A model generated the notes under the pieces. That model was given only the letters and a program-made list of their open reading frames with translations. It made no database searches and was not told where the DNA came from. A stretch of 64,000 nt of DNA from a virus: the IMG/VR virus record IMGVR_UViG_3300005825_000016; one strand, 5' to 3'. Within the stretch, counting starts at the first letter, position 1. Every line of letters starts with the position of its first letter. Both the position numbers and the translations under genes were made by a program. Shown here piece after piece: positions 3 to 34,456 of the stretch.

Positions 3-350
3 GCTGGACGCTTTCAGGCTCTTGGTGGTGATGTCATCAACGCAAGTCAAACAGATATCTCAACACTTATGACAACTGGCGCGACTGATCGTAGTGTGCA
101 GCAGGCTGTCAGGGACTTCGATTTCCAGCAGTTTGTTGAAGAGCGAGACTGGGACTTTCGACAACTCATGGGCGTTGTCTCAGCGCTTGAGGGAACAAAA
201 GGTTCTTACTCAACAACCCAGACCAATGAAACCAAAGAAAGCAGCAGCGCCGCAAGCGTGGTTGGTTCAATAGCAACAGTCGTTGCTGCCATGTACACAG
301 GTGGCGCATCACTCGCCATACAAGGCGCAGCAGGAGCGGCAAGCAAGTGA
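3..350 (+). CDS. DNA ejection/pilot-type internal virion protein (5'-partial)
   Basis: Frame is open from nt 3, before the listed Met at 69. Ala/Gly/Gln-rich with a hydrophobic C-terminal GSIATVVAAMYTGG segment; first of three overlapping genes ending in the giant protein. Confidence 0.55.
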   Translation, partial: AGRFQALGGDVINASQTDISTLMTTGATDRSVQQAVRDFDFQQFVEERDWDFRQLMGVVSALEGTKGSYSTTQTNETKESSSAASVVGSIATVVAAMYTGGASLAIQGAAGAASK

Positions 351-1801: not shown

Positions 1802-4800
1802 ATGGCAACAACAGCGGAAGAGGTGCAGCGTGCAATAGAGCGAGCACGAGCAGCGCAAGACAATGATGCTGTCAGCACGCTCGAAGGGTATCTCAAAACA
1901 TTACAGCCATCGCAACCAGCACAACCTGCTGGCGCGTTGCCCGGTAACGATGATCCTATTGGTCAGGGAGTCAGTGGCCCTGCTCTTACAAAGCCGCAGC
2001 GAGAGCGACGTATAAGTCAGCTCAGCTATGAGCATGACCAATCATTGCTTGGGTTGCCAGAGAATCATCCGCAGCGCCCCACTAAGGATGAGATCAACCA
2101 GTTTCGCAGTAAGCACGTAACGTCACAGACGCCAGATGGCCGTCCTGTTGGCGTGCGTGATATTTCCAAAGATGTTGTGCGTGATCCGAATACCGGAGAA
2201 GTTCGTTGGGCAGCGCTTTCTCCCGATCAGATAGATAGCGCTGAAGCAAAAAAGAAGGCTCGTGAAGATACGAAGAGAGCCACAGGTGGTGCATTGAAGT
2301 TTGGCACTATCAATCCAATTGGCGAATTCATTGACGCGAAAGACAAGGCCATTGAGTCTCGCAACATCACTCAGCAGATCATCTGGGAGCAGATGCCATC
2401 TGGTGAGAAGAGCCGCATCATTAATCGTGTTCGAGAAGAGCATGGCGACAAGGCTGCAATTCGCTTTGAAACTGATGCTGGTTTATTCCCATCCAATGAA
2501 TTCAAGAAGCTCATGGATGAGAACCCGGACAACAACAAGCTGCTTGACACCATGGAAGGTGATGAGTGGTGGGAAGAGCGTAAAGAAACAGTATCGAGAG
2601 TACTATCGAAGATCGGTAGCGCATGGAACTTTGGTGCCCCGATTCCTGCATTCGGAGCAGATACACCAACGGGTGCACTGACTGGTAAGGGTAAGTTCGA
2701 AGGCATTGACTACGCAGGTAAGGATGCACCTTTGTATGCCGGTGCGTCAGAGGATATTCGTGAGTGGCGAAGCGAAGCGAAGAGTGGTGGTATCGGTCTG
2801 TATGAAAACGTACTGAAGCCGTTACTTACAAGCAAGGAAGGGCTGACACCGGGTGAGCGTGTAATCAAAGCCGCTCAGACGATCAAGGAAGAGGCGTACA
2901 CAGCTGAACAGTTGAAGTCTTCTCAGAAGCCGTTTATTCCAGAAGGTAAAACGGTTACGGATATGTTTTCGTCCGACTTCTGGACAGACCCAAATACCAA
3001 GATGCCATGGAATGACTGGACTGGGTTCTACCTGACATTCATGGAGAACGCACCACAAATCGCAGCGAGCGTTGGCGTAACGCGAGTTGCTGGTGGTATT
3101 GGCGCTCGACATGCAGCTGCTGCGAATACAGGCCGTAGGCTACAGGACATTGAGGCTGCTCGGAAAAAATACGCTGGGCTTTATGGTGTTGCTGGTGGTG
3201 GATCGACCGAAGGTTTTCTGATTCACAATAATGTTGCACGTGAAGTTGGTCAGTCATTAGCCGAAGTTCCCATGGAGATATGGCGCGAAGATCAGACCTT
3301 CAATGATCTTGTTGCTGCTGGACTCAATGAGGAAGAAGCTAAGCAGCTACTAACTCAGGATGCAGCGAGCGCAGCTGGCACTACGGCGTTTGCTGTTGCT
3401 GGTTTGGCTGGTGGCGCTCCTATGGGTTACATGATAGGTCAATCAGGAGCAGGTCGTCTTGCGAGTAAAGCCACGGCTGGTCGCGTTGCAACGGCAGCTC
3501 TCGGTGAGCCACTTCAGGAAGGTACGCAGGAAGTTATCGAAGGTGAGATCAGCGACATAGCGATTGCTGGTATTGACCCAGACAATCCGATCTTCTCCCA
3601 AGAGAACCGCAGGCTGGAGCGATTTGCTGGTGGTGCGTTTGTTACCGGACCAACTGGTATTGGCGCACTCGCAACTATTGAGTACGGTAAGCCAGCTGGA
3701 TATCAGAAGGCAGATGTCGAAGCTGCCACGGCTGCAAAGACCATGATGGATGCCGTGAACGAACGGTACAAGCTGGAATTAAAACTCAGCGATCCAGAGT
3801 ATCGTACAAACACCGAGCCTATGGTCAGGCTCAAGAACATGCAAAAGCTGGAAAATCTGCAACGCACAGAAGCAGAGACCGTTCTTAAATCAGCGAAAGT
3901 CCTCAAGGGTTATCTTGCAGATAATCCATCGCAGACATCTAAGGTAGAAGCAAAGCGGCTTGCCACCATGGAGATGCAGGCGAACGCTACGTTGACTGAT
4001 ATTGCCGTTGCGCGATCACGCAGGCAGACGGTCTCTGAGATGGCAGAAGAGCAAGAGAACATCTTGATGGAACGAGCGATGATTCAGCAGCGCGTTGCTG
4101 ATGATCTCATCTCTCTTGAAGATATCAATCGACAGGTCGCAAACATCGAAGCTGTTCAAAACAACGAAGCCGTAAGTGAGGAAGCATATGAAGAGCTGGT
4201 AAAGGAAGGCTATGGTCGCTGGACGAATCAGGCGCAGGAAAAGTTTGTCATCAAGCCGAAGGGTAAGCGAGCACTGAATCTGCTGAACCAGCAAAGCCGT
4301 CATCTTTCAACAAGGATCAAGCAGGGCTACACAGGAACTGATCGACGTAATCCACTGAACCAGATGAAGCGTGATCTGGTGGATTCGGCTGGTCCGGTCG
4401 AACGTGAGCAGATGCTTTATACGGACAACCTCACTGGCGCTCAGAACCGTAGGGCATTTAAGGAGCGCAGCGCAGATGCCAAGGCAGTTGCTGCTGTAGA
4501 CGTAGATTCACTGGCATGGGTGAATGATCATATGACCCATGCGGCTGGCGACAGGCTGCTGGTGACCGTAGCAGACGCCATAGGCTCTCAGAACGGTGTA
4601 GAGGTGTTCCGGCTCGGTGGAGATGAGTTCGCGGTAACTGGAGCATCTCAGGAAGCCTTGGAGACAGCTTTACAAGCAGCAGCCAAGGTACTTCAGAGTT
4701 CCCCTATTGCTGACGCTGAACAAGAGGTTCGTCCTACCATTACATGGGGCAAGGGTGAAACTTACGAGGCTGCTGACAAAGAGGCCGGTAGCAGAAAAGC

Positions 4801-7800
4801 TGAGCGCATCCAGAGGGGTCAGGTGGCGTCTCGTAAGGATAAGCCAGCGTCATGGTCTGCTCGTGCGCAGCTTGGGCTGTTTCATTGGACTGGAGAAAAT
4901 GCTAACCAGAAGTTCTTTGTGCAACATGCCATACAAAACGGTTTACAGGTTGGAAGTGAAGCATCGTTCTCAATAAAGCAAAAGGTCAGGCGGGATGGGT
5001 CAGCGTTAGCGAATCAATCAACGATAACCATTACTGGTCGTGTTGCTGAAGTCTTTAAGAAAGAAAACGAGATTGCTATCCAGACAGCTAACGGTAGCAA
5101 ATTGTATTTTACTAGCCGTGGATGGCTGAAGAGAACTGGCAAACACAAGTTGTCAGCTACAGAAGAGCCTAGCCTTGCATATCAAGTCGAGCGCTCTTTG
5201 CAGCCAGTTGGTACTCGCCCACAGAAGAAAGCATTCAACGAATGGCTGGCGAACAATCCCGGAAAACCTATTAAGGAATACACCGGACCAAGAGTAAAGT
5301 TTGGTGGCATCAGTAATGTAGGGGATGCATCAGTAAGGATTTCATCATTTACTGACGTAGGTGAAAACAAGGGTCTATTCCAGCTCGACAAAGGTGCGGT
5401 ATTTCCACATAAGTGGTCACAGGTTTCGCATCTCGTGAAGCGTGGATCAAGTGTTGAGGTTTTGACACCTGATGGTGCAGAGTGGGGCATTGTTACTAAG
5501 GTTAAGAATGCCGGACGTGACGGCAAACGACCAAGAGTAACAGTAAACATTGATGGTCGTGTTTTCACTTTTAACCCAGACAGAAATCATCTCATTACGC
5601 ATGGAATTGATACAGCTGATTTTGTTTGGATTACTGGTTGGGAAGAATACAGCGATCCATTGTATGGCGCTTTGCCGCAAATAGTTCCTGATGTGCAGAT
5701 TGGTCATGTTGTTAATGAAGGAGAGATTATTGCCGATCTCTACAAAGAGAGCGCTGTTCAGAAGCAGCAACAGCTTGCGTGGTGGACTAATGACTACCCG
5801 GAGTGGCACCCGACAGTACCGTATGTTCCACCACTATCAAAGGTTAGTGAAGACGTTCGGCTTGAAGCGGAAGCGCTGAAAGATTATTTGACTCGTGGGT
5901 ACAGCAATCTGCCGGAAATCAACATGATCTACGATCTGGCCGAGACACCTGAAACGGTGAGAGCGCAGATCATTGCCGAGGGTGCGTCTATTCACGGTGT
6001 CCACGGATACATGAACCACATTAATCCGAAGGATGGCATCTATATATTTGTCCCGAACATTTATCGTGGAAGTAAAAACAATCTTGAGAGCGGCATCACT
6101 GAGACATTGCTGCACGAGATGATCGGCCACTATGGAGTACGTGGATTCTTCGGTAATGAAGCGAAACTTCGGGAGATGATGAACGAGCTGGTTGATGCGT
6201 TCCCGAAAGTTGCCGATGCTCGCGCCCGTCACCTAAAGTTAAATAAAGCAATCCCGAATCATAAGCAGCTTCTTGGTGAAGAGATGATTGCTTATTTGGT
6301 TGGTGAACACGCCAGCGGCAAGGTCAGTCTGAACAAAAAGCAGAAAGGCGTGATCGAAAAAATCATCAGCTGGATACGTCAGCTGCTGGTCAGGATGCGC
6401 TTCATTAAGGGTAATGAAGTTGACTTCTGGAATGACGCGAGAGTAAGAAGGCTGGTTTCTCGCTCTTACGATTTCGTTCGCAATGGCAAGGGGTTCGAGT
6501 GGACCGCGCTCACTGGTGAGGTTATTAGGTTCGATACACCGCTTCAGATGCGTGACGGAGATATATTCCAGCAAGGCGTTGTTACGGCGATTACGACAGC
6601 TACCGAAAAAATCACAACGAAACAGCAAAAGCAAAAGCACGCGAAGCAGTATGGTGGTGTTGAGAACGTGCCACAAGAAGTACCAATGTTTCCAGAGAGC
6701 GCCAGCCCAAATATCTATCGGTTATCATTGCAAACAGCGGTTAAGGCTGGATACATCTCCAAGATGGAAATGAAGTACTCTGGTCTTGACGAGAGTGGCA
6801 GCGACTATGCGCTTCTTCGTGACGCGAAGTACAATGATATCAAATCTTTAATGTTGGCAACGGAAGAAATAAATCCTCGTGATTGGTATAAAAATGTACT
6901 TCCATTTGGATTGGCAAAAGAAGTTGATGCGCTTTACGAGACGATGGATAACAGCACTATGGTTGGTCCACTTATCCCGGAAGCGAGAGCAGAGGTTTAT
7001 CGCGGTGTTATTGATCAAGAGGCATATAACAATGCGACAAATCGTATCCAAGAAATCATGGATATGCCAATTGATCAGAAGAATGCCACGATCAGCAAGA
7101 AGATTTTACTTGCTCACGCTGCAAGCAATAAAGCACTGCGTATCAACGTTATACGTCAGGGTGGACATCCTAATTTGGAATACTCAACGGTTGCTCAAAT
7201 CTTATTTGGACCTGATGTTGATTTCGATAGCCTAACGGATTTTCAGACGGAGATGATTGATGCTGAAAAACGACGCATCAAAGATCGTGGTCCGTTCATC
7301 GGCTATAACGAAGAGCAGGATCGGTGGTTGGATTGGGCAAATTCAAGACATCAATATCGCGAGTATATTCCGCAGGGAGCAAAAGCCACTAATGACTATC
7401 GTGTTGCCTTAGTGCTACAGGAAGGCTCTCACGAAATGGGGTCAGTACCATCTGCTCACTGGGGTGTTCCGCACTTAATGCACATCAGAACTGCTGTGGC
7501 AGATATTGCTTCAATAGAAGGCGCTCCCGTACTCCCACCAGCACGAAATCCAGAAATGGAAGGCAAAGCGCTTTCTATGATTGAATTGCAAGCCAACTGG
7601 TTACAGGAGCTTCGGTACGCATATACGACTCCTTCGATGAGGGAAGACAGTGCAAGGCAATATGATTTCGACAAAAAAACCACAGTATCTTTGTCGATGG
7701 GGTTTGTAACTAGACTCAGTGAAGGCTTATGGGATTCTGTTGATAAGATGCTAAAGCCTATCTACAACGCGCCAACAGGTGCCTTAAAGCAAGAGTATCT

Positions 7801-10800
7801 GGAGTTTATTGAATCAAGGTATGGTCAGCCACTGGAAGAAATGTCCGAGGCTACAAAAAGAGAGGCATACACAAGATTCAATGACCACAAGCTAACGCCG
7901 ATTATAAATAAGATTTCCGAAGCGAAGGAGATCGCAAAATCTTTTGGAGCTGTTCGTCAAACATTCATGAACGACCTTCCCGGTCTTATGGATGCTCGTG
8001 TGTTTGATAGGCTCGACACCTATGCGGTATCTGAGGTAACAGAGCGAATTAGTGACGATTTGACTAATTTGATTAGTGGACTTCACCGTATGATCGAGGC
8101 ACCAACTCATCAAGAGTTGGTGGCAACTGTGGGTGAAATAAAATCAAGAGTTACTCGTAACCTTCATCGCCTTTCCGGCAGTTCAACAATTTCACGGTTG
8201 GCTTTTGCGAAACCAAAGATCGTTGAGATGGTTGGAGCAGTACTCGAAAAACTTGAGTTTAATGACATTCTTGACGTGGCTATGGAGCCACTTGATGCAG
8301 TTGAGCGAGTTGCAATTCGCATTCCGGTAGAGGCAATTAATGAGTATCGAGATGCCTCTAAAACACGACAAGATCCTTCGCAAATTATCATGCTAAATAT
8401 CCTATCGAACAGCAGGCTTCTTGATGCTGGTATAAACCCCAATGGGATGCACCTTCAGTTCGATCAAGAAACTGATCCAAATTACTTTGAGATCACAGCA
8501 GCTGGCACAAAAGAGCATTTAACAGTATTAAGCGAGAAGCTACCGAATCTAATAAGAACCTATGTTAGCTCAACTGGTCCGGTAAGTTTTGAAAACTGGC
8601 TTAGCAGTACAGCAACTAGTAACGCACGAGAACGTAATTCTAGCGAAGTTACGTGGGATGAAGTTAAAGAAGAATTTGGATTTACCGAGGTAAACCTCGA
8701 TGATCCTAGTCATGATGAACTTAGTCTTTTGCGAGAACATAGTGTTCAAACGTATGAGCAGTTCGAGACCTATGAGTTCGATGACATTATGGTTGATACC
8801 GTGAACTCAGCTTTCGAAAACATGGACTGGAGTGAAGTTTATAACGACGATGGTGAAGGCTTATGGCCCGGATCAACAGACTTCACGGAGCGAGTGGAAT
8901 TTGATGATGATGGTGATGCTGATACAGATAATGCAAGACAGTGGCTTAGTGATGCTCGCGAATCGTATCGAAGCAATGAGATGTTTGATGATGATTCCTT
9001 GCGTGACAGCGCATATGATGAAATCCGTGAACGTTGGGACTCATCACCGGCAGCTTTAATTCTTGGTGTTATACCAGTGGAGTGGGATGAGGACGGAGAA
9101 GTAACCGACTCCGTTGCGTTTCGCATCGCAGCTCAAAACTATGATGATTATTACGATGTCTTCATTAATGATGAAGAGGTTGCTAGTGAGGTAAATCTCA
9201 ATGATGCGCAGCAAAAAGCTATTAATGAGATTAGAGATTACTACAACGATAGAGGAATAATTCTTCCTCATGAGAGTCTTTTTAGCCCTACTGAAGACAT
9301 CGTTCCAGATAATTCTAATACTGATCTTGACACTGATCGGGTACAACCAGATTGGTTAAGTATTGCGAATCGAATTATTGATTCATCTGGTGTGATCTCT
9401 CTGCCACCGGAAAGTGGCGATAAGATATTTGAGCGTATGGTTTCTTACGAGAAAGCAAAAGAAGCCAGAAGGCAAAAGGGTATTGAGGAAAGAGTAATAA
9501 CAGATACTCCGCTGAAAGACGATAGCGTCTGGAGACCCATTGCTTTGAAGTACTTGCTTTCTGATGCTGTTCGCAGAGGGTTTCCTGCAATCATTTGGAA
9601 CAATGGACTGGCAAGCTCAAAGCGTGGTGGTAACTGGGGTGTTGAAGTTGCTCGACCAGTAAATCGTATTGTTTGGACGCAGGAGACAATGACTCTTCGT
9701 GGAGAGACCCACGATATGATCGTCATTCGCACTCCAGACTTGCCAAGCCCTATTGTGGTTGATGCGAGAAGGATGATTCCTATTCTCGGTCGAGATTTAT
9801 CGACACATATCATCGGTCAAATAAACGGGAAGATTCCTCTGCAACCAGAGGTTCAGGCGAGAGGGGAAATTATTGAAGGAGAAGCAGCAGAGGTTTCATT
9901 GCGAGATCATTTTCTTCTCTCAACGTCGCCAAGTGGCATTACTTCACTGCATCGTCGCAGCGATGGTGGATTCGTAGGTCTTGCTCGTGGAGAAGATGAA
10001 GTCCAAGCTCTTATGGAATCGCATATGGAATCGCATAGACCCTATCTGACTCGTCCAGCTGGATGGACAGAGGTTGAACCTGACCTGTTAGCTGACATTA
10101 ATCCTCTTGGTAGCGAAATTAAGATGACAGGTATCGTTACCGAGCAAAGTCTTGGCACAAAGATGCGCATCATCGCTGGAGGCCGAGAGCGCGATTACCA
10201 TCATACCTACGCCCAAGCAAAACAAGCATCAGCTCGCGAGTCTTATGAAGGAGTGATGCACCGAATATGGGAAAAAGAGCTGAAGAAGTACGGTGCAACC
10301 ATTCAAGAGGCTTGGGTAAAAGGAAACATTGATGATGCATGGAATAAAGAAGGTCAACCTATTAAAAAGATAGACACGCGATCTGAGCGTATAGCGGTAA
10401 CGCATGGAAAGGTTTCCATTGAAGAACTGAGAGGTGAGACTCACGGCTATATTGCTATGAGCGAAAGAAGTGGTTTACTCACTGAGCGCATTTTTGAAAG
10501 CTATGCTCGTGCATCTGAGTGGATGGAAGAGTGGAAAGATAATAATTTTGGGGAAGAAGGTGGCGTAATTAAAGTGTATTACGTCGCGATTAATGACAAG
10601 ATCGTTGAAGAATTCTCTGGTCCTGTTGCTCCGTTTCATTATGATCCAACACAAGACCCTGTACTTAAGGAAGCCGCTGAGAAAATTGGTTATGAAGATG
10701 TTTCATTCCGTGACAGATACAACAAGTGGCGTGAAGCATGGCGGGATAAATTCAATCAAGGAATGTTTGATCGCTTCCACGGTATTAAACGAGCACTTTC

Positions 10801-13426
10801 TTACGCTCATGAAACCAACAAGGGTTACATTCAAACTCGCCTTACTACGTCTCTTGATTCAGTGATGAAGTCAGTTATGGAATACGGCCCACCAGTGTGG
10901 TCTGGTGGAATCGTTCAGTCTGACGCAAAGATTGGCGGCTTTCTCGATATTCTCCAGCCAGTTATGGCGCAAATCGACCTGTGGGGCATGTACATGGCTG
11001 GAGTCAGGGCCAAGCGGTTACTTGCAGAGGGTCGAGAAAAACTTTTTAGCGAAGAACAGATCGACGCCATGGTTGCTCTTGGCGACAAGTATCCACAGTT
11101 TGCACGTGTTGCAGCGAAGTATGCGGAATTCAACAAGAAGATTCTTGACTTTGCTGAAGAGGCTGGCGTTATCAACCCGGATACCAGATCACTGTGGGAA
11201 AACGCCGACTATGTACCATTCTATCGCGTCGAGGATGAGAGGCTGGTAGGACCATTTTCTGGTGGGGCTGGTGTTGCGAACCAGCGGTCTCCGATCAAGC
11301 GACTGAAGGGTGGTGACGCTAATATCGGCAACGTCATTCACAACATCATGGTGAATATGACGAAGCTGGTTGATACGTCGATGAAAAACCAAGCCGCCCT
11401 TACCACGGTGGATGCACTACGTGGGTCTGGCATCGTGTCGAAGCAACCTATGACATTCTCGCAGCAGGTCATTCCACTGAATCAGGTGAAGAAGCTGCTA
11501 ATAGATCGCGGCATGAATCCAGAAACCATTCCGGTCGCGGCGCTTGAAGGTTTCCAGAAAATGTTCGCGGTGCAGCCGCCGGAAGGTCCGGGCGTGATCT
11601 CAATTCTGCGTGATGGCAAGAAGGAGTTCTATTACACGGATGATGATCTGCTGTACCGGGCGATGACCAACATTAATAAGAAGCACTGGGGTTCATGGAT
11701 GAATTTATTCCGTGCACCGAAGCGACTGTTGACGACAATGATCACGTTGGACCCCGGCTTCATGGCTGCGAACTATGTGCGTGACTCTTTGTCAGCTTTC
11801 GTTCTATCTCGCGATCATTTCATTCCTGTCGCATCAGGCATCAAGGGGTTTGGTCAGGCACTGGTTAAAGATAAGGCTATGCGTACCATGTTGTCTGCTG
11901 GTGCCGCATTCGAAAGCGGATACATCAATCAGTATGATCCGAAGTCAACTGATCGTGTGATCAAAGATGCTATGAAGAAAAAGACTTTCTCTCGCACGGT
12001 TCTGAATACGCCGAAGAAATTGTTCCAAGCATGGAAAGCGATTGGTTCAGCAACAGAGAACGCGAACCGTATGGCTGTATATAACGCAGCGATAGCGGCA
12101 GGTAAATCCGAGATGCAAGCTGTGTTCGAGGCCAAGGACTTAATGGACTTTTCCATGGGTGGAGATTGGCCTGCTGTCCAGTTCCTTATTCAGACTGTGC
12201 CGTTCATGGGCGCTCGTATGCAGGGTCTGCACCGACTTGGACGTGGGTTTGCTGAAAACCCAGCAGCCTTTCTGTTGAAGGGCACCATGGTTGGCATGGC
12301 TGGCATGGCGTTGTTTCTCACCTTCCGTGATGACGAGCGCTACAAAGAACTCGAAGAGTGGGACAAGGATACATACTTCCACTGGTGGATTGGCGACAAC
12401 CATTACCGTCTGCCGAAGCCGTTTGAGGTTGGTGCGATATTCAACACGATCCCTGAGCGGATCATGGAGTACGCAGCATCGAACGAGAAGGACGCACCGA
12501 AGCTGTTCTGGTCTCGCATGGGCCACATGTTCGGAGAGACGTTCAATATGAACCCTGTGCCGCAGACTCTTCGCCCGATGACGGAATCGTATTTCAACTA
12601 CAACTTCTTCGCAGGTCGATCTATCGTCAGCCCATACGAGGCTGATCGAATGGCACCTGAGCAGTACCGTTACTCAACCAGTCCAACCATGGTTGAACTT
12701 GGTCGCGCTCTACCTGCTGAGCTTGATGTTGCGAGCAGTAAAATCAGATCGCCGCTGCATCTTGCGAACCTCTTCTACGGCTATACAGGCACGCTCGGTA
12801 AGTATTTCCTGCTGGCATCGGATGCCGTGGTCAGGGATCAAATGGACTATCCGAATCCACCGGAGTTACGTAAGAGCGATTGGCCTGTGGTGAGTCGGTT
12901 CTTCCGTGGCAGTGAGCCGCGTCGCACCAAGTATGAAGAAGAGACCTATCGCCTGATCAAAAAGGTCAGCGAGATTCAAGGCTCTCTTCGCTTCCTTGAG
13001 AAGACAGAGCAAGAGGCTCGTTTCGAAGATATTCAGACTGAATGGGAGCCGTATATTCGAGTAGCGAAAGACCTTGAAGATGTTCGCGAAGATGTTAGTG
13101 ACATCAATGCTGCGATCATGAATATCTGGATGGACCCGGAAATGGACCCGAAGCAGAAGCGCATCGAAGTTGATTCGCTGCAAAAAGATAAGAACATGCT
13201 ATTTGAGCTTGGCTATGAATTGCGTCCGGGTGGTCCATTGAACACTGACGGTGAGCCTGTCACTCAGCAGATGATTAAAGAGCTGATTGATAACTTCGGT
13301 GTTGATGACCTGAGTGCAAAAGCGCTTGAGGGTAAAGCACCAGAAACGTTTGATTTGATCAGTGGAATAAACACACTTGGAACACGAGAGCTGCAACGTC
13401 TTGCTGAATACAGGGAGCAACAGTGA
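1802..13426 (+). CDS. giant polyvalent internal virion protein: GGDEF domain, zincin-like metallopeptidase, acidic tract, C-terminal LPD38
   Basis: 3874 aa. TDNLTGAQNRR...DVDSLAWVND...AAGDRLL...RLGGDEF (aa ~873-1005); LLHEMIGHYG...GEEMIAY (aa ~1438); RLPKPFEVG...NPVPQTLRP (aa ~3536, LPD38-type). Confidence 0.85.
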   Translation: MATTAEEVQRAIERARAAQDNDAVSTLEGYLKTLQPSQPAQPAGALPGNDDPIGQGVSGPALTKPQRERRISQLSYEHDQSLLGLPENHPQRPTKDEINQFRSKHVTSQTPDGRPVGVRDISKDVVRDPNTGEVRWAALSPDQIDSAEAKKKAREDTKRATGGALKFGTINPIGEFIDAKDKAIESRNITQQIIWEQMPSGEKSRIINRVREEHGDKAAIRFETDAGLFPSNEFKKLMDENPDNNKLLDTMEGDEWWEERKETVSRVLSKIGSAWNFGAPIPAFGADTPTGALTGKGKFEGIDYAGKDAPLYAGASEDIREWRSEAKSGGIGLYENVLKPLLTSKEGLTPGERVIKAAQTIKEEAYTAEQLKSSQKPFIPEGKTVTDMFSSDFWTDPNTKMPWNDWTGFYLTFMENAPQIAASVGVTRVAGGIGARHAAAANTGRRLQDIEAARKKYAGLYGVAGGGSTEGFLIHNNVAREVGQSLAEVPMEIWREDQTFNDLVAAGLNEEEAKQLLTQDAASAAGTTAFAVAGLAGGAPMGYMIGQSGAGRLASKATAGRVATAALGEPLQEGTQEVIEGEISDIAIAGIDPDNPIFSQENRRLERFAGGAFVTGPTGIGALATIEYGKPAGYQKADVEAATAAKTMMDAVNERYKLELKLSDPEYRTNTEPMVRLKNMQKLENLQRTEAETVLKSAKVLKGYLADNPSQTSKVEAKRLATMEMQANATLTDIAVARSRRQTVSEMAEEQENILMERAMIQQRVADDLISLEDINRQVANIEAVQNNEAVSEEAYEELVKEGYGRWTNQAQEKFVIKPKGKRALNLLNQQSRHLSTRIKQGYTGTDRRNPLNQMKRDLVDSAGPVEREQMLYTDNLTGAQNRRAFKERSADAKAVAAVDVDSLAWVNDHMTHAAGDRLLVTVADAIGSQNGVEVFRLGGDEFAVTGASQEALETALQAAAKVLQSSPIADAEQEVRPTITWGKGETYEAADKEAGSRKAERIQRGQVASRKDKPASWSARAQLGLFHWTGENANQKFFVQHAIQNGLQVGSEASFSIKQKVRRDGSALANQSTITITGRVAEVFKKENEIAIQTANGSKLYFTSRGWLKRTGKHKLSATEEPSLAYQVERSLQPVGTRPQKKAFNEWLANNPGKPIKEYTGPRVKFGGISNVGDASVRISSFTDVGENKGLFQLDKGAVFPHKWSQVSHLVKRGSSVEVLTPDGAEWGIVTKVKNAGRDGKRPRVTVNIDGRVFTFNPDRNHLITHGIDTADFVWITGWEEYSDPLYGALPQIVPDVQIGHVVNEGEIIADLYKESAVQKQQQLAWWTNDYPEWHPTVPYVPPLSKVSEDVRLEAEALKDYLTRGYSNLPEINMIYDLAETPETVRAQIIAEGASIHGVHGYMNHINPKDGIYIFVPNIYRGSKNNLESGITETLLHEMIGHYGVRGFFGNEAKLREMMNELVDAFPKVADARARHLKLNKAIPNHKQLLGEEMIAYLVGEHASGKVSLNKKQKGVIEKIISWIRQLLVRMRFIKGNEVDFWNDARVRRLVSRSYDFVRNGKGFEWTALTGEVIRFDTPLQMRDGDIFQQGVVTAITTATEKITTKQQKQKHAKQYGGVENVPQEVPMFPESASPNIYRLSLQTAVKAGYISKMEMKYSGLDESGSDYALLRDAKYNDIKSLMLATEEINPRDWYKNVLPFGLAKEVDALYETMDNSTMVGPLIPEARAEVYRGVIDQEAYNNATNRIQEIMDMPIDQKNATISKKILLAHAASNKALRINVIRQGGHPNLEYSTVAQILFGPDVDFDSLTDFQTEMIDAEKRRIKDRGPFIGYNEEQDRWLDWANSRHQYREYIPQGAKATNDYRVALVLQEGSHEMGSVPSAHWGVPHLMHIRTAVADIASIEGAPVLPPARNPEMEGKALSMIELQANWLQELRYAYTTPSMREDSARQYDFDKKTTVSLSMGFVTRLSEGLWDSVDKMLKPIYNAPTGALKQEYLEFIESRYGQPLEEMSEATKREAYTRFNDHKLTPIINKISEAKEIAKSFGAVRQTFMNDLPGLMDARVFDRLDTYAVSEVTERISDDLTNLISGLHRMIEAPTHQELVATVGEIKSRVTRNLHRLSGSSTISRLAFAKPKIVEMVGAVLEKLEFNDILDVAMEPLDAVERVAIRIPVEAINEYRDASKTRQDPSQIIMLNILSNSRLLDAGINPNGMHLQFDQETDPNYFEITAAGTKEHLTVLSEKLPNLIRTYVSSTGPVSFENWLSSTATSNARERNSSEVTWDEVKEEFGFTEVNLDDPSHDELSLLREHSVQTYEQFETYEFDDIMVDTVNSAFENMDWSEVYNDDGEGLWPGSTDFTERVEFDDDGDADTDNARQWLSDARESYRSNEMFDDDSLRDSAYDEIRERWDSSPAALILGVIPVEWDEDGEVTDSVAFRIAAQNYDDYYDVFINDEEVASEVNLNDAQQKAINEIRDYYNDRGIILPHESLFSPTEDIVPDNSNTDLDTDRVQPDWLSIANRIIDSSGVISLPPESGDKIFERMVSYEKAKEARRQKGIEERVITDTPLKDDSVWRPIALKYLLSDAVRRGFPAIIWNNGLASSKRGGNWGVEVARPVNRIVWTQETMTLRGETHDMIVIRTPDLPSPIVVDARRMIPILGRDLSTHIIGQINGKIPLQPEVQARGEIIEGEAAEVSLRDHFLLSTSPSGITSLHRRSDGGFVGLARGEDEVQALMESHMESHRPYLTRPAGWTEVEPDLLADINPLGSEIKMTGIVTEQSLGTKMRIIAGGRERDYHHTYAQAKQASARESYEGVMHRIWEKELKKYGATIQEAWVKGNIDDAWNKEGQPIKKIDTRSERIAVTHGKVSIEELRGETHGYIAMSERSGLLTERIFESYARASEWMEEWKDNNFGEEGGVIKVYYVAINDKIVEEFSGPVAPFHYDPTQDPVLKEAAEKIGYEDVSFRDRYNKWREAWRDKFNQGMFDRFHGIKRALSYAHETNKGYIQTRLTTSLDSVMKSVMEYGPPVWSGGIVQSDAKIGGFLDILQPVMAQIDLWGMYMAGVRAKRLLAEGREKLFSEEQIDAMVALGDKYPQFARVAAKYAEFNKKILDFAEEAGVINPDTRSLWENADYVPFYRVEDERLVGPFSGGAGVANQRSPIKRLKGGDANIGNVIHNIMVNMTKLVDTSMKNQAALTTVDALRGSGIVSKQPMTFSQQVIPLNQVKKLLIDRGMNPETIPVAALEGFQKMFAVQPPEGPGVISILRDGKKEFYYTDDDLLYRAMTNINKKHWGSWMNLFRAPKRLLTTMITLDPGFMAANYVRDSLSAFVLSRDHFIPVASGIKGFGQALVKDKAMRTMLSAGAAFESGYINQYDPKSTDRVIKDAMKKKTFSRTVLNTPKKLFQAWKAIGSATENANRMAVYNAAIAAGKSEMQAVFEAKDLMDFSMGGDWPAVQFLIQTVPFMGARMQGLHRLGRGFAENPAAFLLKGTMVGMAGMALFLTFRDDERYKELEEWDKDTYFHWWIGDNHYRLPKPFEVGAIFNTIPERIMEYAASNEKDAPKLFWSRMGHMFGETFNMNPVPQTLRPMTESYFNYNFFAGRSIVSPYEADRMAPEQYRYSTSPTMVELGRALPAELDVASSKIRSPLHLANLFYGYTGTLGKYFLLASDAVVRDQMDYPNPPELRKSDWPVVSRFFRGSEPRRTKYEEETYRLIKKVSEIQGSLRFLEKTEQEARFEDIQTEWEPYIRVAKDLEDVREDVSDINAAIMNIWMDPEMDPKQKRIEVDSLQKDKNMLFELGYELRPGGPLNTDGEPVTQQMIKELIDNFGVDDLSAKALEGKAPETFDLISGINTLGTRELQRLAEYREQQ

Positions 13427-17951: not shown

Positions 17952-18112
17952 TTTCTCCTGAATAGGTCTTTGATGTCAGTGTTCCACCATTTCTTTTTTC
18001 TTTTGCCGAGCCTGTAGTGCTCATACTCCCATGTGAGATACCACAGCCAGAAGTAGGTGCCTGCTCCGATTGCAAGCAGTCCAAGTGCTTCAGTACAAGT
18101 GATTGCACTCAT
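17948..18112 (-). CDS. small membrane-anchored protein (54 aa, not in ORF track)
   Basis: MSAITCTEALGLLAIGAGTYFWLWYLTWEY...KRKKKWW; start and stop overlap both neighbours. Confidence 0.55.
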   Translation of the reverse strand: MSAITCTEALGLLAIGAGTYFWLWYLTWEYEHYRLGKRKKKWWNTDIKDLFRRK

Positions 18113-19023
18113 GACCCTGTGTCCATGATTGCGTCTCTCATTTTCTTGTAGGTGATGCGAGCAACCTTTTGGTCTGCTTCATCGAGCACCTTTGCCATGT
18201 CAGCTGCTTTCAATAATTCTTCCATGGTGTCGCTTTGGTGCATTGCGCGTTCAACAGCAGCAAGCGTTATTTCTTCGGCTGGCTCCTGTTTAACGCCGCT
18301 CCCAAATACTTTGTGCGCTTCAACAAGATTGTCCGGCTCCTGAGCTGGCTTCGGCAGCTGATATTGAGTCACTGGTGGGGGTGTGTTTTCGTGATCAACC
18401 TGCTCTTCGACAACACCGAGGCCCTTCAACAGATCGGGATACGCATCACGTAAGCAGTATGCTCGTGCTCGCATCTGAAGCATCCGCTTTGGGTGTTTCT
18501 TCCAGTTGAACTTTGAATCAATGCCTGCCTGTACAGCGTCAGACCAAGAGTATGTTGCACTGATCGTCTGTGGATCGTCCCTGCGTTGCGTCTCGCAGGT
18601 TGCTGTTTTTCCATCCTCAGAGAGGGTTTCCTTGATCCACATGCACTTAGGAGAAGCACGCACAACTCCAATCAGTCCATCACCATACAGGCAGGGCTTT
18701 CCGTCGATCACAGCAATGGATTGGATGGCCTGAAACGGCTCCATACCAAGCTCTGATCCCATGTTAATTGCTACGAATACATCGTTCGGCCTGCCGCGAT
18801 ATGCGTCAGGTACGAGGCTTGATAGTGCTAACGTGTGCGCGACACGTTTTGCTAGTTCGTATTTGGCGAATGCTGGGTCAGAAGCAAGTGCCTGACCAGC
18901 TGCCGCCATGATAGTTTGTTCTGCTTCTTCCTCAGTGATTACGACGCTGGTGGCTTCGTTCACTTTTTCTGAGGCTGGTTTTTTGGCTGGCGCTTTCTTC
19001 TTGCTTGCTTTCTTGGTAACCAT
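18109..19023 (-). CDS. RecT-like ssDNA annealing protein
   Basis: VPDAYRGRPNDV...GSELGMEPFQAIQSIAVIDGKP...WKKHPKRML; adjacent to YqaJ exonuclease and SSB. Confidence 0.8.
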   Translation of the reverse strand: MVTKKASKKKAPAKKPASEKVNEATSVVITEEEAEQTIMAAAGQALASDPAFAKYELAKRVAHTLALSSLVPDAYRGRPNDVFVAINMGSELGMEPFQAIQSIAVIDGKPCLYGDGLIGVVRASPKCMWIKETLSEDGKTATCETQRRDDPQTISATYSWSDAVQAGIDSKFNWKKHPKRMLQMRARAYCLRDAYPDLLKGLGVVEEQVDHENTPPPVTQYQLPKPAQEPDNLVEAHKVFGSGVKQEPAEEITLAAVERAMHQSDTMEELLKAADMAKVLDEADQKVARITYKKMRDAIMDTGS

Positions 19024-19059
19024 TGTGCTTCTCCTAATAAACCCAGATATAAATAGTTT

Positions 19060-19998
19060 TCACGTCTCCAGTAAGATGGCTGTGCCAGCTTCTATGGCTC
19101 GCTCAGCATCTACTGGCAGTTTGGCTGTGTGTCGGGTAACAACGAATGAAGTCTCGGCAACTTCGAAAGCCTTCCGCGTTTGCTCTTTACGTGTGTAGGC
19201 TGACCCATCAGGTAAGACACCGACTGCGGCTTCGCCCATGAGCATAGCAATGCGGTTCTTGCAGCCGTCGATAATTCCTTGGTATAGCTTCGCTTGTTCT
19301 TGTGAGTCGTTGAGTACGTCATGATATTTCTGTGCGACCTCTGGCAGTATTACGACATTGCCGTTCGTGCCGGGATAAAGGTTTTTGATAAGGCGCGTCG
19401 TTGCTGCTGACTGCCACTGTGGTTCTGGTGCGACCTTCGACTGCACACGATCCCAGAATTCTTCTTCTGCTTGAATCAGATCATTGATGATTGACTCGAT
19501 TGGGTTGATTCGGTACTGGCGATAATCGCGGTTACCAATCAGGACAGCCAAGTCCCAGTGATCGTACCCAGTGACGGCGAGATAATGCTGGCACTGACAC
19601 ATGATGTATGCGGGGATTTCGCTTGACCCAGACTCACCCCACCCATCCGGGCGTGCGGCTGTCTTCGCTTCAAACCCAATCTTACGATCTTCACCAACTA
19701 CCTTGCGGTCAATGTTGGCAAGCATGAATGGATGCTCTTTCGAGCGAATGAGATTGTTGGACTTCTGAATTTTGTAACCAGTTTCTTCGGCGTACCGATT
19801 GGCTACTGGCTCTTCGAGAACGCTGCCCCAGTAACGAGATTCTTTGAGGAAGGTTTCATCTTCTGGTGGGGCTTCACCTATCTTGTCCAGATAGAGTTCG
19901 TAAGCCGTGGTATATGGGTTGATTCCCAATACGGTAGCCGCGTCTGAGCCACCTACACCTGATCGTCTTTCTTCGAGCTGCGCCTTCGTAAGGGACAT
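19060..19998 (-). CDS. YqaJ-like viral recombinase / lambda-exonuclease family
   Basis: RRSGVGGSDAATVLG...LANIDR...FEAKT...QCQHYLAV. Confidence 0.92.
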   Translation of the reverse strand: MSLTKAQLEERRSGVGGSDAATVLGINPYTTAYELYLDKIGEAPPEDETFLKESRYWGSVLEEPVANRYAEETGYKIQKSNNLIRSKEHPFMLANIDRKVVGEDRKIGFEAKTAARPDGWGESGSSEIPAYIMCQCQHYLAVTGYDHWDLAVLIGNRDYRQYRINPIESIINDLIQAEEEFWDRVQSKVAPEPQWQSAATTRLIKNLYPGTNGNVVILPEVAQKYHDVLNDSQEQAKLYQGIIDGCKNRIAMLMGEAAVGVLPDGSAYTRKEQTRKAFEVAETSFVVTRHTAKLPVDAERAIEAGTAILLET

Positions 19999-20253: not shown

Positions 20254-21900
20254 TTATCTACTGAACTCCGCAATGATGGGGAGCACGTTTGCATCGAATC
20301 CAACCACGTCTAACATGCCGGAATCGTTGGGGTCAGCGATGCTGAACCCGCTGCTCGTCACACCAATAACCACGAGCTTAGCATTCGGGTTATGGGTCTG
20401 TCGGTATGACACTAATGCCTGAGCTGGCTTAATAGTGCCTGCCCACGTCTCGTTATCAGTGATGACGATGAACGTGTCTACCATGATGTTGTTGGCCGCA
20501 GCGTATAGCATCGGCACAGCACAGTCGGTAGAGCCGAAGTTACGGTCATACACTTTCTTCATCACGCTTTCCATCGAATCATTTGAGCCGATGTTGAGAT
20601 CAACAAATCCAGCGAGAGCGTTTTCCTGATCATGACGACCATATCCGTAGCCTCGTGGTCCTGCCGTGAAACCATGAATAAAATGAACTGGCTCAGTACG
20701 AGCGATGATCATTGCCATGGCACCAGCTGCCTCTGCTGCGCTGATATTCGAATTACTAATTGATGAACTCATCGAACCAGACACATCAACACCAATCATG
20801 AATGCCTTACCAGTCGGCTCCACATTCACGAATGCCTTCTCGAAACCCTTATCGAGTGCAGAGATTACACGCGGGTCAGTCTTCCAAGTCAGTGAGCTGC
20901 GATAGCCACCACCAGAGCTGTAATTCTTTAACGCCAAGAGATAGTGCATCGGGTGAATCTTTGAGCGCTTGATCTGCTCATCACTCACCAGTCGATCCAA
21001 TACCATCTTGGTCTCTACAGACATCGGCTTCAGCGTACCGTTCGCCGTCATCTTGCCCAGCTGTCGGATGGTTGCCATGAGTGGCATCTTCTTCAGCAGC
21101 TCGCGGTTGACAGCCTCGTTCTTCAGCCACTCAGTCGGCAGCATCTCCCATGACAGGCTGTACTGCTCAACATGCTTAGCCATGTCAGCGCCTTCGTTCC
21201 ACTCAAGCGTCTGTGCATCGCAGTAGCCCCTGTAGATGCGCGGCAGCTTGCCGGTCGCAACCTTTGCTTCCATCGTCTCAGGGCGGCAGGTCACATCGAA
21301 CATCGCACGCTTCTGCTCGACAATCGTTACCGGGTGAGATAGACGCATGATGTCGCGATGCGACCAACCATCACGCTGACGATACTTCAGCAGCTGATAG
21401 GCAAGATTGTCCGGCTTCTGGTTGTTATACCAGCGCTGGAAGGCACGCTTTGTAGCGCGGCCCCATCCACCAAATGCCTCAACGAACTTCGCAAACATGA
21501 ACAGGTGCGTACCCGTTCGTGCTACCTCTGGCATCACACCAGATGCCAGCTTGCGAGTCTGCTCATCGCCCAGCTTCAAAGCTGCGGCAAGAACAAACAA
21601 GGCAGCATCATTCTTGTGTGCGCGACCGTCCTGTGAAATCTCCACAACACGATTGACCACACGAAGACCATCAGACTTGATCAGTCCGATTACTGCGTTG
21701 GCATTGTCCTTGGTCAGGCTCGACTCGGTGACGTAGTAAGTGCCACCCTCGGAACCGAGAATAAGAAACCGATCCAGACGATCCCAGTCATCCAGCTTGT
21801 GAACGAATCCACCTGCTGAGTTCTTGACCTCATCGGTACGACCGGGGGTGCGCTCGCGCTGCGGTGAGACGCGAGTTGATACGTGACGTGAATAATCCAT
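20254..21900 (-). CDS. rsr: Ro60 RNA-binding protein (TROVE + vWA)
   Basis: VKNSAGGFV...LDRFLILGSEGGTYY...RTGTHLF...KYRQRDGWSHRD...GVDVSGSM...TDNETW...VVGFD; start at ATG 21900 with AGGAG 7 nt upstream. Confidence 0.97.
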   Translation of the reverse strand: MDYSRHVSTRVSPQRERTPGRTDEVKNSAGGFVHKLDDWDRLDRFLILGSEGGTYYVTESSLTKDNANAVIGLIKSDGLRVVNRVVEISQDGRAHKNDAALFVLAAALKLGDEQTRKLASGVMPEVARTGTHLFMFAKFVEAFGGWGRATKRAFQRWYNNQKPDNLAYQLLKYRQRDGWSHRDIMRLSHPVTIVEQKRAMFDVTCRPETMEAKVATGKLPRIYRGYCDAQTLEWNEGADMAKHVEQYSLSWEMLPTEWLKNEAVNRELLKKMPLMATIRQLGKMTANGTLKPMSVETKMVLDRLVSDEQIKRSKIHPMHYLLALKNYSSGGGYRSSLTWKTDPRVISALDKGFEKAFVNVEPTGKAFMIGVDVSGSMSSSISNSNISAAEAAGAMAMIIARTEPVHFIHGFTAGPRGYGYGRHDQENALAGFVDLNIGSNDSMESVMKKVYDRNFGSTDCAVPMLYAAANNIMVDTFIVITDNETWAGTIKPAQALVSYRQTHNPNAKLVVIGVTSSGFSIADPNDSGMLDVVGFDANVLPIIAEFSR

Positions 21901-21912
21901 CTTACTTCTCCT

Positions 21913-21937
21913 ATTCGGCTCGTCCATCACGAGCGTT
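21913..21937 (-). promoter_or_regulatory. circularly permuted Ro-binding hairpin adjacent to the rsr Shine-Dalgarno
   Basis: AAC-GCUCGU-GAUGG-ACGAGC-C-GAAU then AGGAG; same GAGC-C-G / (C/U)GCUC bulged helix as the three Y RNAs. Confidence 0.65.
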
Positions 21938-21943
21938 AAAAAA

Positions 21944-22075
21944 TGAGCATGTTATTGGCAGCGAAAGTTACGCGCTCTCCCAAGCTGAGCTACACCCACC
22001 ATTGTAGGGTGGGCGACTGGATTTGAACCAGTGACCTCGATCTCCCAAAGATGATAACGCTATCCATCCGGCTCA
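21944..22075 (-). ncRNA. yrlA: YrlA-type tRNA-like Y RNA
   Basis: Terminal Ro helix UGAGC-C-GGAU/ACAU-GCUCA; T arm ACUGG-UUCAAAU-CCAGU, loop-closed acceptor CGCCCACC/GGUGGGUG, D arm UA-GCUC-AGCUUGGGA-GAGC in permuted order; directly upstream of rsr. Confidence 0.9.
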
Positions 22076-22089
22076 AAATCAAAACTAAA

Positions 22090-22172
22090 TGCGAGCGTGT
22101 TGCGGAAGAGCGGTAGCCTTTCGGCATTTCACTGTTCAAGAGTAAGATAACGCTCTGATCCATCGGCTCGCA
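22090..22172 (-). ncRNA. Y RNA 2 (83 nt, non-tRNA module)
   Basis: UGCGAGC-C-GAU/ACAC-GCUCGCA Ro helix; AGAGCG/CGCUCU stem, UUAUC motif, GCC-GAAA-GGC hairpin. Confidence 0.8.
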
Positions 22173-22215
22173 AAACTGTCGAGACACCAATCCACTTAGT
22201 GCCTTAAAAATTTAG

Positions 22216-22280
22216 CCTGAGCATGTAAATTGCGGTGGGAACGATCATTAGAAGTGATAACCCATTGCATCCGGCTCAGG
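22216..22280 (-). ncRNA. Y RNA 1 (65 nt, minimal)
   Basis: CCUGAGC-C-GGAU/ACAU-GCUCAGG Ro helix; UGGG/CCCA stem then UUAUC; 5' end at the predicted TSS. Confidence 0.8.
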
Positions 22281-22287
22281 GATTGGC

Positions 22288-22331
22288 ATCATACGCCGGG
22301 GCTGGCTAAAGTCAACACTCAGTGGTAAAAT
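22288..22331. promoter_or_regulatory. divergent promoters sharing an operator (Y RNA-rsr leftward, HTH gene rightward)
   Basis: Minus strand TTGACT-16 nt-TATGAT (22315-22288); CACTCAGTG 22316-22324; plus strand TGn-TAAAAT 22326-22331. Confidence 0.7.
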
Positions 22332-31216: not shown

Positions 31217-31837
31217 ATGACACCAAAAAAACGAGAGTTCGCAAGGCTTTACGCGCAGAGCAATAAGGTTGCTGAGGCAGCGCGTGGGGCTGGGTATTCT
31301 GAGATATACGCTGCGAAAAGAGCGTCTATCTTATTGAATGATCCAGAGGTGATAGCTGAAGTGAAGCGCATTCGCGAGCGCCTGAACCAGACAGCAGAAA
31401 AGAACGCTACCGATGTGGTAAATGAGTTTTCAAAAATAGCATTTTCTGATCGCGTAGATTTCTTGAAGGAAGACCCATATAACCCCGGCGAGTTCATTTA
31501 CAAATCACCTGATGAATTGACCGCTGATCAACGGGCTGTTGTTGAAAAAGTAACTTACTCGTCAGAACAAATTGCTATCACCGAAAATGGTGAGGTGCGA
31601 AAAGTCTGGGTGAAGAACTACAACTATGTGTTCTCGGATAAATCAAAAGCGCTTGAGCAGATGGGCAGGCACTTCGGGATTTTTGATGACAAGCTACGAC
31701 TCACTGGTGCTACGCAAAACGCATTCAAGAACGTATCACCAGAACAGCTACAGCAACTGAAAGAGTCATTCGTAAAGACAATGAATAGCGTAAGCCTGAT
31801 TGAGGGCACATACGAAGAGGTGAAGAATGGCAGGTAA
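31217..31837 (+). CDS. terS: terminase small subunit
   Basis: MTPKKREFARLY...AARGAGYSE..A...LLNDPEV; DKSKALEQMGRHFGIF. Confidence 0.88.
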   Translation: MTPKKREFARLYAQSNKVAEAARGAGYSEIYAAKRASILLNDPEVIAEVKRIRERLNQTAEKNATDVVNEFSKIAFSDRVDFLKEDPYNPGEFIYKSPDELTADQRAVVEKVTYSSEQIAITENGEVRKVWVKNYNYVFSDKSKALEQMGRHFGIFDDKLRLTGATQNAFKNVSPEQLQQLKESFVKTMNSVSLIEGTYEEVKNGR

Positions 31838-34236: not shown

Positions 34237-34389
34237 ATGTTATCATCTAATGGTAAAGCAGAAGCTGAGTATCAGTGCCTGCTTTGCCATTTTTTTTGGT
34301 CGCAAAAGCCTGAAATTGTCAGGTGTAAAAGATGCGGTCATATGTATGTTCAGTGGGTGAATTATGAAGAATGGAAAGAATGTCGCTAA
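34237..34389 (+). CDS. 50-aa Zn-ribbon protein (not in ORF track)
   Basis: YQCLLCHFFW...RCKRCGHMY; follows operator 34223-34231; stop overlaps the tRNA 5' end. Confidence 0.55.
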   Translation: MLSSNGKAEAEYQCLLCHFFWSQKPEIVRCKRCGHMYVQWVNYEEWKECR

Positions 34390-34456
34390 GGCCGATCATG
34401 GGATGGCAAGGGCTTTCAATCCCCGGAGCCGGGTTCGAGTCCCGGTAGCGACTCCA
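34382..34456 (+). tRNA. atypical tRNA, Glu(UUC)-like with a defective anticodon stem
   Basis: GUCGCUA/UAGCGAC acceptor, GCCG/UGGC D stem, CCGGG-UUCGAGU-CCCGG T arm, U73 and encoded CCA; anticodon region AAGGG-CUUUCAA-UCCCC pairs poorly; A at position 8. Confidence 0.7.

Follow-up and report, generated by a model that had tools for sequence, protein, structure and literature searches.

A GGDEF domain inside a giant phage gene

The DNA analyzed here, referred to as the window, is a stretch of 64,000 nucleotides from the IMG/VR virus record IMGVR_UViG_3300005825_000016. It contains the gene for a giant polyvalent protein of 3,874 amino acids (aa) in which a GGDEF domain, the fold of the diguanylate cyclases that synthesize cyclic di-GMP (c-di-GMP), is embedded in the same polypeptide as a C-terminal LPD38 domain. 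Our analysis indicates that the gene encodes a real and well-conserved GGDEF cyclase module, judged from its residues to be probably active, within a polyvalent protein that is probably ejected into the host cell. The features of the gene that bear directly on this module are the following, in window coordinates.

1802..13426, + strand: giant polyvalent protein gene, 3,874 aa, a single uninterrupted open reading frame (ORF)
4340..4417, + strand: clade-specific N-terminal helices before the GGDEF core, aa 847-872, with an [ED]-R-R ... R pattern
4418..4816, + strand: GGDEF domain core, aa 873-1005, with Pfam, NCBIfam, and PDB sequence and fold matches
4499..4528, + strand: DVDSLAWVND, aa 900-909, its register taken from the N908/D917 spacing
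4616..4630, + strand: GGDEF signature, aa 939-943, with R937 before it (RLGGDEF, aa 937-943, nucleotides 4610-4630)
4772..4807, + strand: C-terminal helix A991-D992 ... K999 ... R1002, putative phosphate-binding Lys/Arg equivalents
4817..4861, + strand: clade-specific tail after the core, aa 1006-1020
12332..12892, + strand: LPD38 domain, aa 3511-3697 (PF18857, E 2.5e-36, 126 bits)

A first-pass annotation, made from the letters of the DNA and its translated reading frames, had recognized the domain from a handful of short motifs. All of these motifs lie in frame in the 3,874-aa ORF, where YTDNLTGAQNRRAF starts at aa 873, HAAGD occupies aa 913-917 and ADKEAGSRK aa 991-999, and the GGDEF signature falls exactly at 4616-4630.

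Identity and predicted fold of the domain

The HMMER comparison suggested in that annotation, against Pfam family PF00990, yields a match over aa 873-986 whose score is 36.9 bits when the full-length protein is scanned and 44 bits (E 2.6e-11) when the piece is excised, for a cut-off of 23.8, and the NCBIfam GGDEF domain model TIGR00254 scores 45.7 bits (cut-off 37.4). In phmmer searches the excised piece matches the solved diguanylate cyclases SadC, TpbB/YfiN, WspR, DgcZ and PleD, with SadC and TpbB at E ~1e-8, and a profile of the clade to which the domain belongs matches solved diguanylate cyclases at E-values down to 1.9e-23. An AlphaFold2 model computed with 75 relatives has a predicted local distance difference test score (pLDDT) of 91 and a predicted template modeling score (pTM) of 0.80, and the structural match that the first-pass annotation had called for was found with Foldseek, in which all 50 of the PDB matches listed are GGDEF diguanylate cyclases, at E-values down to 2.4e-9. 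The model contains helices at aa 851-862 and 865-873, both predicted with high confidence, and a strand at aa 980-985 that is directly followed by the last helix, at aa 988-1005. The window protein carries a single GGDEF copy.

It is virtually certain that aa 873-1005 adopt a real GGDEF fold, a palm-like alpha/beta domain, and the profile and fold scores rule out a chance motif match. Two related folds were also considered and rejected. For a palm of the Cas10/mCpol type, the Pfam scan revealed neither Cas10 nor mCpol, and no Cas10 appears among the 50 fold matches listed; for a GGDEF of the cyclic GMP-AMP (cGAMP)-producing Hypr type, the guanine-reading Asp, D917, is kept, with no Ser at that position. 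With respect to base composition, the GGDEF segment (4380-4830) contains 55.7% G+C, compared to 47.9% for the whole giant gene (1802-13426) and 49.5% for the window, a difference that could stem from an Ala-, Gly- and Asp-rich composition or from separate acquisition.

Active-site residues and the replaced lysine

The alignment register relative to PleD was fixed by the invariant guanine-pocket Asn and Asp, and the roles of the PleD residues were taken from two reviews (PMC7288161, PMC12943098), in one of which D327, N335 and D344 are reported to be essential. The resulting correspondence, with the window residue first, is as follows.

D900, PleD D327: metal
V901, PleD I328: backbone metal ligand
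A905 (nucleotides 4514-4516), PleD K332: transition-state stabilizer, lost here
N908, PleD N335: guanine
D917, PleD D344: guanine
R937, PleD R366: residue two before the motif
G939-G-D-E-F943, PleD G368-G-E-E-F372: signature loop

The metal-binding Asp (D900), the guanine-binding Asn and Asp (N908 and D917) and the signature at aa 939-943, with its metal-binding D941/E942, are thus intact, as the first-pass annotation had read them. The same holds for its claim that the RxxD inhibitory site (I-site) is absent, given that the positions equivalent to PleD R359-x-x-D362 read QNGV (aa 930-933). In the last helix, the D+7 spacing from A991-D992 to K999 is that of the canonical AD..LY.AK pattern, and R1002 lies one turn further. 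On the basis of this D-to-K spacing and of the secondary structure of the model, we infer that K999 and R1002 are the equivalents of PleD K442 and R446; the HMMER alignment of this helix to SadC shifts the register by one turn-set, and the register given by the AD-to-K spacing was preferred.

The Lys at position 905 is the sole canonical catalytic side chain missing from the domain. In an alignment of 192 clade sequences, the residues for metal, guanine and phosphate binding and those of the signature are kept in 168-190 sequences; D900, D902, N908, G940, D941, E942, K999 and R1002 are each found in 172-190 (G940, D941 and E942 in 187-190, K999 in 182 and R1002 in 172). No catalytic position other than 905 varies repeatedly in the clade; here, 147 sequences have Lys, 28 Ala, 11 Gly and 6 another residue (45 of the 192 without Lys). 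Among the 42 sequences closest to the window protein, 22 have Ala, 16 Lys, 2 Gly and 2 Glu at this position, with the rest of the active site identical, and many distant branches likewise have another residue in place of the Lys, with all the others retained. Because the replacement is repeated while all other residues are kept, we read the Lys as a side chain that is dispensable in this clade, and not its absence as decay. The first-pass annotation had noted that the usual FK reads LA and had feared for catalysis on that account: the Lys is indeed lost, but the caveat is weaker than feared, since changes at this position recur in a clade that is otherwise invariant.

These same residues bear on a different explanation, namely that the domain is a weakened or dead GGDEF, kept for GTP-Mg binding, for scaffolding or for poisoning host cyclases, and yielding no significant product. 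The K332 equivalent is an Ala, two further residues conserved in the clade, R1008 and Y936, are lost in the sub-lineage of the window protein, and bacteria commonly have degenerate GGDEF domains that serve as receptors or scaffolds. Furthermore, three sister giants (P0031, P0032 and P0056) carry the dead signatures SGNEF or GGKEF at the same place, together with a Glu at the Lys position and a Tyr for the conserved His, and the slot therefore tolerates non-catalytic copies. Against this stand the invariance of the metal- and substrate-binding residues and of the DEF catalytic pair in the 22 orthologs with A905, the independent replacement of the Lys in many branches that keep everything else, which makes this side chain look dispensable, and the PleD loop itself, whose phosphate contacts are reported, in one of the two reviews, to be made through main-chain amides. 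On balance, a weakened or dead domain appears rather doubtful, and it is reasonably likely, to the extent that residue conservation can indicate, that the domain is still an active cyclase despite A905. Residues 936 and 1008 were also considered as compensation for the lost Lys. They co-vary with position 905 (Fisher p 1e-9), mostly within one lineage, so the association is phylogenetically confounded and was not used as evidence.

Conservation of the domain and a compact GGDEF clade

A full-length alignment of the window protein and 28 orthologs (29 proteins) shows that the GGDEF stretch of these orthologs has 0.62-0.75 identity to the window protein, against a mean of 0.41 over the gene. It is the best-conserved part of the first 3,000 residues, and only the C-terminal LPD38 region is comparable. 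The GGDEF domain is hence under strong purifying selection inside these giants.

For the survey of homologous LPD38 proteins that the first-pass annotation had recommended, only giant-sized proteins were searched, by means of a word index. Of the 51 proteins listed in this search, 31 combine GGDEF with LPD38, with lengths of 3,159-4,262 aa on contigs of up to ~75 kb, and the domain also occurs in giants with other polyvalent-protein partner families. GGDEF is present in some 40 orthologous and sister giants. When 1.84 billion cluster representatives were searched exhaustively with HMMER, 576 matched at E<=1e-10; among the best 150 of these 576, 80 have at least 2,000 aa and another 32 have 1,000-1,999 aa (112 with at least 1,000 aa), and 20 are stand-alone proteins of at most 320 aa.

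The members of this group share a signature in which a conserved Arg-rich helix precedes the core and the first helix is shortened, together with the motifs DxDSLKW and [RH]-x-[GS]-GDEF. The Arg residues equivalent to R848, R849 and R857 are kept in 150-159 of the 192 clade sequences, and the tail after the core follows the consensus G-x-R-A-x-R-G-x-x-P, which in the window protein reads GQVASRKDKP, with R1008 replaced by Val. An RxxD at the canonical spacing is present in 3 of 181 clade members. These features, as far as they can be judged from alignments, define a compact clade that is distinct from the cellular cyclases.

Tandem pairs of clade-type GGDEF copies, separated by 200-290 residues within one polypeptide, are found in at least nine relatives, among them five giants and four shorter proteins (P0046, P0057, P0058, P0062, P0064, P0065, P0069, P0093 and P0097). 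Such tandem copies may constitute a built-in dimer, and they are expected if two-domain condensation is what selection maintains.

The divergence of the clade raises the question of its product. An active cyclase or nucleotidyltransferase might make a molecule other than c-di-GMP (3',3'-cGAMP, c-di-AMP or a linear product of the pppGpG type) that jams or decoys nucleotide-signaled immunity. Clade members score 37-80 bits with Pfam, compared to 176-265 for canonical tandem GGDEFs; they have a conserved N-terminal Arg helix and a basic tail of their own; and a minority has Asn, Ser or Thr at the guanine-reading Asp. Decoy cyclic nucleotides are, moreover, known in phage-host conflict, according to the Panoptes paper. 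The window protein, however, keeps both guanine readers, N908 and D917, with no Asp-to-Ser change of the Hypr type, the 50 PDB fold matches listed are all diguanylate cyclases and not Cas10 or mCpol, and the PADLOC defense models match no part of the giant protein. A product of this kind is accordingly quite improbable for the window protein.

Other parts of the giant protein

Outside the GGDEF module and LPD38, four further features were identified along the protein.

2918..4333, + strand: N-terminal region, aa 373-844, weakly similar to DarB-like antirestriction giants (phrog_10089, E 1.9e-7)
4919..5416, + strand: orphan variable insert right after the GGDEF module, aa 1040-1205
6113..6130, + strand: HEMIGH block, aa 1438-1443, a candidate metallopeptidase site
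12263..12319, + strand: strongly hydrophobic segment, aa 3488-3506 (Kyte-Doolittle, 19-residue window, score 1.69)

The N-terminal region, aa 373-844, matches no Pfam family. The slot after the GGDEF module is hypervariable, with 9-19 residues in 19 of the 29 aligned proteins and inserts of ~120-260 residues in the other 10, which are mostly unrelated to each other save for two related pairs. The insert of the window protein is a 166-residue orphan that, when searched as aa 1030-1262, has no Pfam family, no Atlas match and no homolog, inside giants or as a free protein, among 5.8 billion proteins, and its single-sequence AlphaFold2 model is unusable (pLDDT 41). The HEMIGH block conforms to a HE-x-[IV]-G-H (HExxxH) pattern followed by Y-G-[VI]-R-G, and its His, Glu, Gly and His are invariant in all 29 aligned proteins. 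It matches no peptidase family of Pfam, NCBIfam or PHROG; from its pattern, it may be a processing metallopeptidase of the kind that Iyer et al. 2017 regard as typical of polyvalent proteins. The segment at aa 3488-3506 is the only strongly hydrophobic one of the 3,874-aa protein, and its position directly before LPD38 hints that the C-terminal module contacts a membrane.

Evidence for delivery of the giant protein

The first-pass annotation had assigned the GGDEF domain to a large polyvalent protein in an ejection-type genomic slot. The window protein is indeed a giant multidomain phage protein with an LPD38 (PF18857) domain, which is the arrangement of phage-type polyvalent proteins, and its gene adjoins ejection-type genes, as seen immediately upstream.

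3..350, + strand: end of the upstream gene, resembling a DNA ejection protein (phrog_4287, E 7.5e-8)

The C-terminal 975 aa of the protein match giants of Aeromonas, Vibrio, Escherichia and other phages, some of them annotated as virion or DarB-like proteins; the GenBank phages with these related LPD38-bearing C-terminal regions are without GGDEF. In the window the giant gene is on the same strand as the virion genes. Further upstream context was taken from two orthologous contigs, in which the giant gene closes an operon that starts with tail-fiber-like genes and includes two further large ORFs, and is followed by recombination genes on the opposite strand. Virion proteomics has detected the LPD38 giant of phage phi24B, gp47, and its authors propose that the protein is packaged and ejected. 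Based on the LPD38 tail, the place of the gene after ejection-type genes and, by analogy, the phi24B gp47 proteomics, we consider it likely that the giant protein is virion-borne and enters the cell.

A different reading is that the cyclase is active and yet not injected: the protein could have a late or assembly role, or it could stay in the envelope as a conduit, away from cytoplasmic GTP. Delivery of the window protein is deduced from context, the authors of the phi24B study propose a trans-periplasmic conduit role for its LPD38 giant, and the single hydrophobic segment of the window protein adjoins LPD38. Nevertheless, a domain that needs GTP and depends on the cytoplasm is strongly selected inside a virion-module gene, stand-alone genes of the same clade have antirestriction and DNA-binding genes as neighbors and precede the terminase genes, and the polyvalent-protein logic set out by Iyer et al. 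2017 (PMC5512222) argues for entry into the cell. We regard an active but non-injected cyclase as unlikely.

Proposed mechanism

We propose that aa ~847-1020 constitute a compact, uninhibited GGDEF cyclase effector, carried in a polyvalent LPD38 protein that is ejected and raises c-di-GMP in the host. The giant protein would be packaged inside the capsid and expelled along with the DNA, and its GGDEF module would reach the cytoplasm and bind GTP-Mg via D900, D941/E942, N908, D917, K999 and R1002. The module would then pair with a second copy and condense two GTP molecules into c-di-GMP. Because it has neither an RxxD I-site nor a sensor domain, its output would be limited only by the amounts of enzyme and GTP, and host c-di-GMP would be raised already in the first minutes, ahead of all phage gene expression. 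Action this early would be in keeping, by analogy, with the situation in Yuavirus phages, where a member of the same clade is encoded by a separate 156-aa gene next to an antirestriction gene. The complete chain of steps is a tentative proposal, to which we give slightly less than even credence.

Several observations weigh against it. Within the active site, A905 takes the place of the Lys that the literature regards as the transition-state stabilizer (PMC7288161, PMC12943098), and this comes on top of the losses of R1008 and Y936 and the dead signatures of the three sister giants described above. In the AlphaFold2 model no long coiled-coil stalk precedes the domain. Searches of the window at Rfam gathering thresholds revealed no c-di-GMP riboswitch, and Pfam scans of 30 further window ORFs revealed no PilZ, EAL or HD-GYP domain, although the unscanned ORFs could hold one. 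Among 50,697 records of deposited phage genomes, none showed a match of this GGDEF inside a giant protein. In the literature, we found no enzyme assay of any clade member, and no phage GGDEF for which an enzymatic or genetic experiment is reported.

There is precedent for a phage benefiting from raised c-di-GMP: PlzR, induced when c-di-GMP is high, blocks type IV pili as well as pilus-dependent phages, and phage peptides are reported to activate the host cyclase YfiN. As to purpose, a rise in host c-di-GMP, superinfection exclusion, shutdown of pili or flagella and interference with immunity, most of them suggested in the first-pass annotation, are conjectures, and nothing in the window, be it a receptor, a phosphodiesterase, a riboswitch or a defense-model match, points to one purpose. 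The interpretation advanced in that annotation is, overall, partly supported.

Genome and sample context

The window represents most of a phage genome, and megablast of the giant gene against the 50,697 phage records found no DNA-level match to a deposited phage. The main landmarks of this genome are the following.

18109-19998: RecE-like exonuclease and RecT-like annealing protein
46231-47991: large terminase
47991-50417: portal
53452-54366: major head protein

Genes for an SSB, a helicase and a primase are also encoded in the window. A Terminase_2 (small terminase) gene lies at 31217-31837, ~14 kb upstream of the large terminase gene, with many small ORFs in between. On the - strand, at 20254-22315, a 558-aa ORF matches phrog_850, annotated as an RNA-binding protein (E 1e-80). 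Rfam at gathering thresholds identified no Y RNA family in this region, and its sole match in the window is a tRNA at 34382-34453.

The nearest relatives of the window terminase are found in Roseobacter phages (45% identity), and related DNA is present in estuary metatranscriptomes and marine metagenomes; the source is an uncultured estuarine or marine phage. For the 3800-5400 portion of the window, nine estuary metatranscriptome runs contain 23-47% of the sampled words. RNA libraries from nature hence contain a close relative of the giant gene, with carried-over DNA as the alternative explanation.

Significance

The design described here, a GGDEF domain within a polyvalent protein, was predicted from sequences in 2017 (Iyer et al., PMC5512222). 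What is new is that the clade proves far more extensive than originally described and stands sharply apart from the cellular cyclases, that its GGDEF domain is strongly selected inside giants, and that it exists in two forms, as a fusion to probably injected proteins and as a small independent gene of phages. Should the domain be active and delivered, the virus particle would carry a ready-made synthase of a bacterial second messenger. Phages could then control motility, pili and matrix production within seconds of entry, and this would explain the recurrence of c-di-GMP enzymes on mobile elements.

Taken further, the clade, which has neither a sensor nor an I-site and occurs almost exclusively in polyvalent giants and very small proteins of phages, might be regarded as a dedicated viral "instant second-messenger" weapon, in which an injected, pre-made cyclase swamps the cell with c-di-GMP or a related dinucleotide ahead of phage transcription, shutting down pili or flagella and excluding competitors, or blinding nucleotide-based defenses, and in which the sub-lineage lacking the Lys has a tuned or altered chemistry; we consider this broader idea somewhat doubtful. 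The module, of ~170 residues, is small enough for direct expression and assay, and the stand-alone Yuavirus homologs sit in culturable Pseudomonas phages, which makes them genetically accessible.

Comparison with known systems

The closest published parallel is the description by Iyer et al. 2017 (PMC5512222) of GGDEF domains in polyvalent proteins, exemplified by a prophage protein of Acetonema longum (WP_004096050.1), for which the authors proposed interference with host nucleotide signaling or action against rival elements. As in those proteins, the GGDEF domain of the window is embedded in a giant multidomain phage protein with predicted delivery on invasion, and the two purposes put forward by Iyer et al. 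coincide with those suggested in the first-pass annotation. The two differ in their partners: the A. longum protein joins GGDEF with SNF2, methyltransferase, peptidase and ART domains, whereas in the window protein its partners are a DarB-like N-terminal region, an HExxxH block and a C-terminal LPD38 module. Furthermore, GGDEF was then described as "not very widespread" in polyvalent proteins, in contrast with the 576 cluster representatives (E<=1e-10) found here, which are mostly giants among the best 150.

In the 50,697 deposited phage records, nearly all GGDEF matches are short stand-alone proteins of Yuavirus and Vojvodinavirus siphophages, and the rest consist of weak or partial hits to uncultured fecal contigs and of a few annotated cyclases of the cellular type. 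The Yuavirus and Vojvodinavirus proteins (YuA gp44, MP1412, AN14_48 and those of Bordetella phages LK3, FP1 and CN1) belong to the same compact clade as the window domain. The Yuavirus proteins show 41% identity over the whole domain, share the DxDSLKW, GDEF and AD...K..R...G.RA.RG..P motifs and likewise have no sensor and no I-site. In contrast with the window domain, the Yuavirus and Vojvodinavirus proteins are free, of 130-160 aa, and keep the Lys, and their genes adjoin antirestriction and DNA-binding genes. Lysogens of Bordetella phage LK3 display a hyperbiofilm phenotype, a correlation only (PMC8471281), and a 2023 review counts the short GGDEF protein of YuA among the few phage c-di-GMP elements.

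The bacterial cyclases PleD, WspR, SadC, YfiN (TpbB) and DgcZ have the same fold, the same metal, guanine and phosphate residues, and the same GG(D/E)EF loop as the phage domain. The latter is, however, ~20-30 residues shorter, with a truncated helix between NRRAF and the first strand and a deleted segment before the last helix. It also differs in having no RxxD I-site, no sensor or receiver domain, no long stalk and an Ala for the FK Lys, and it adds a conserved N-terminal Arg-rich helix and a C-terminal tail.

At the level of the whole protein, the giants phi24B gp47 and Bcep22-like JC1 gp69 resemble the window protein in their C-terminal LPD38 module and in their size, and P1 DarB is the paradigm of a packaged giant antirestriction protein. 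The difference lies in the cargo, which in phi24B gp47, JC1 gp69 and P1 DarB consists of LPD1, LPD5, MuF-C peptidase, methylase/helicase and lytic transglycosylase domains, with no GGDEF, and in the window protein includes the GGDEF domain.

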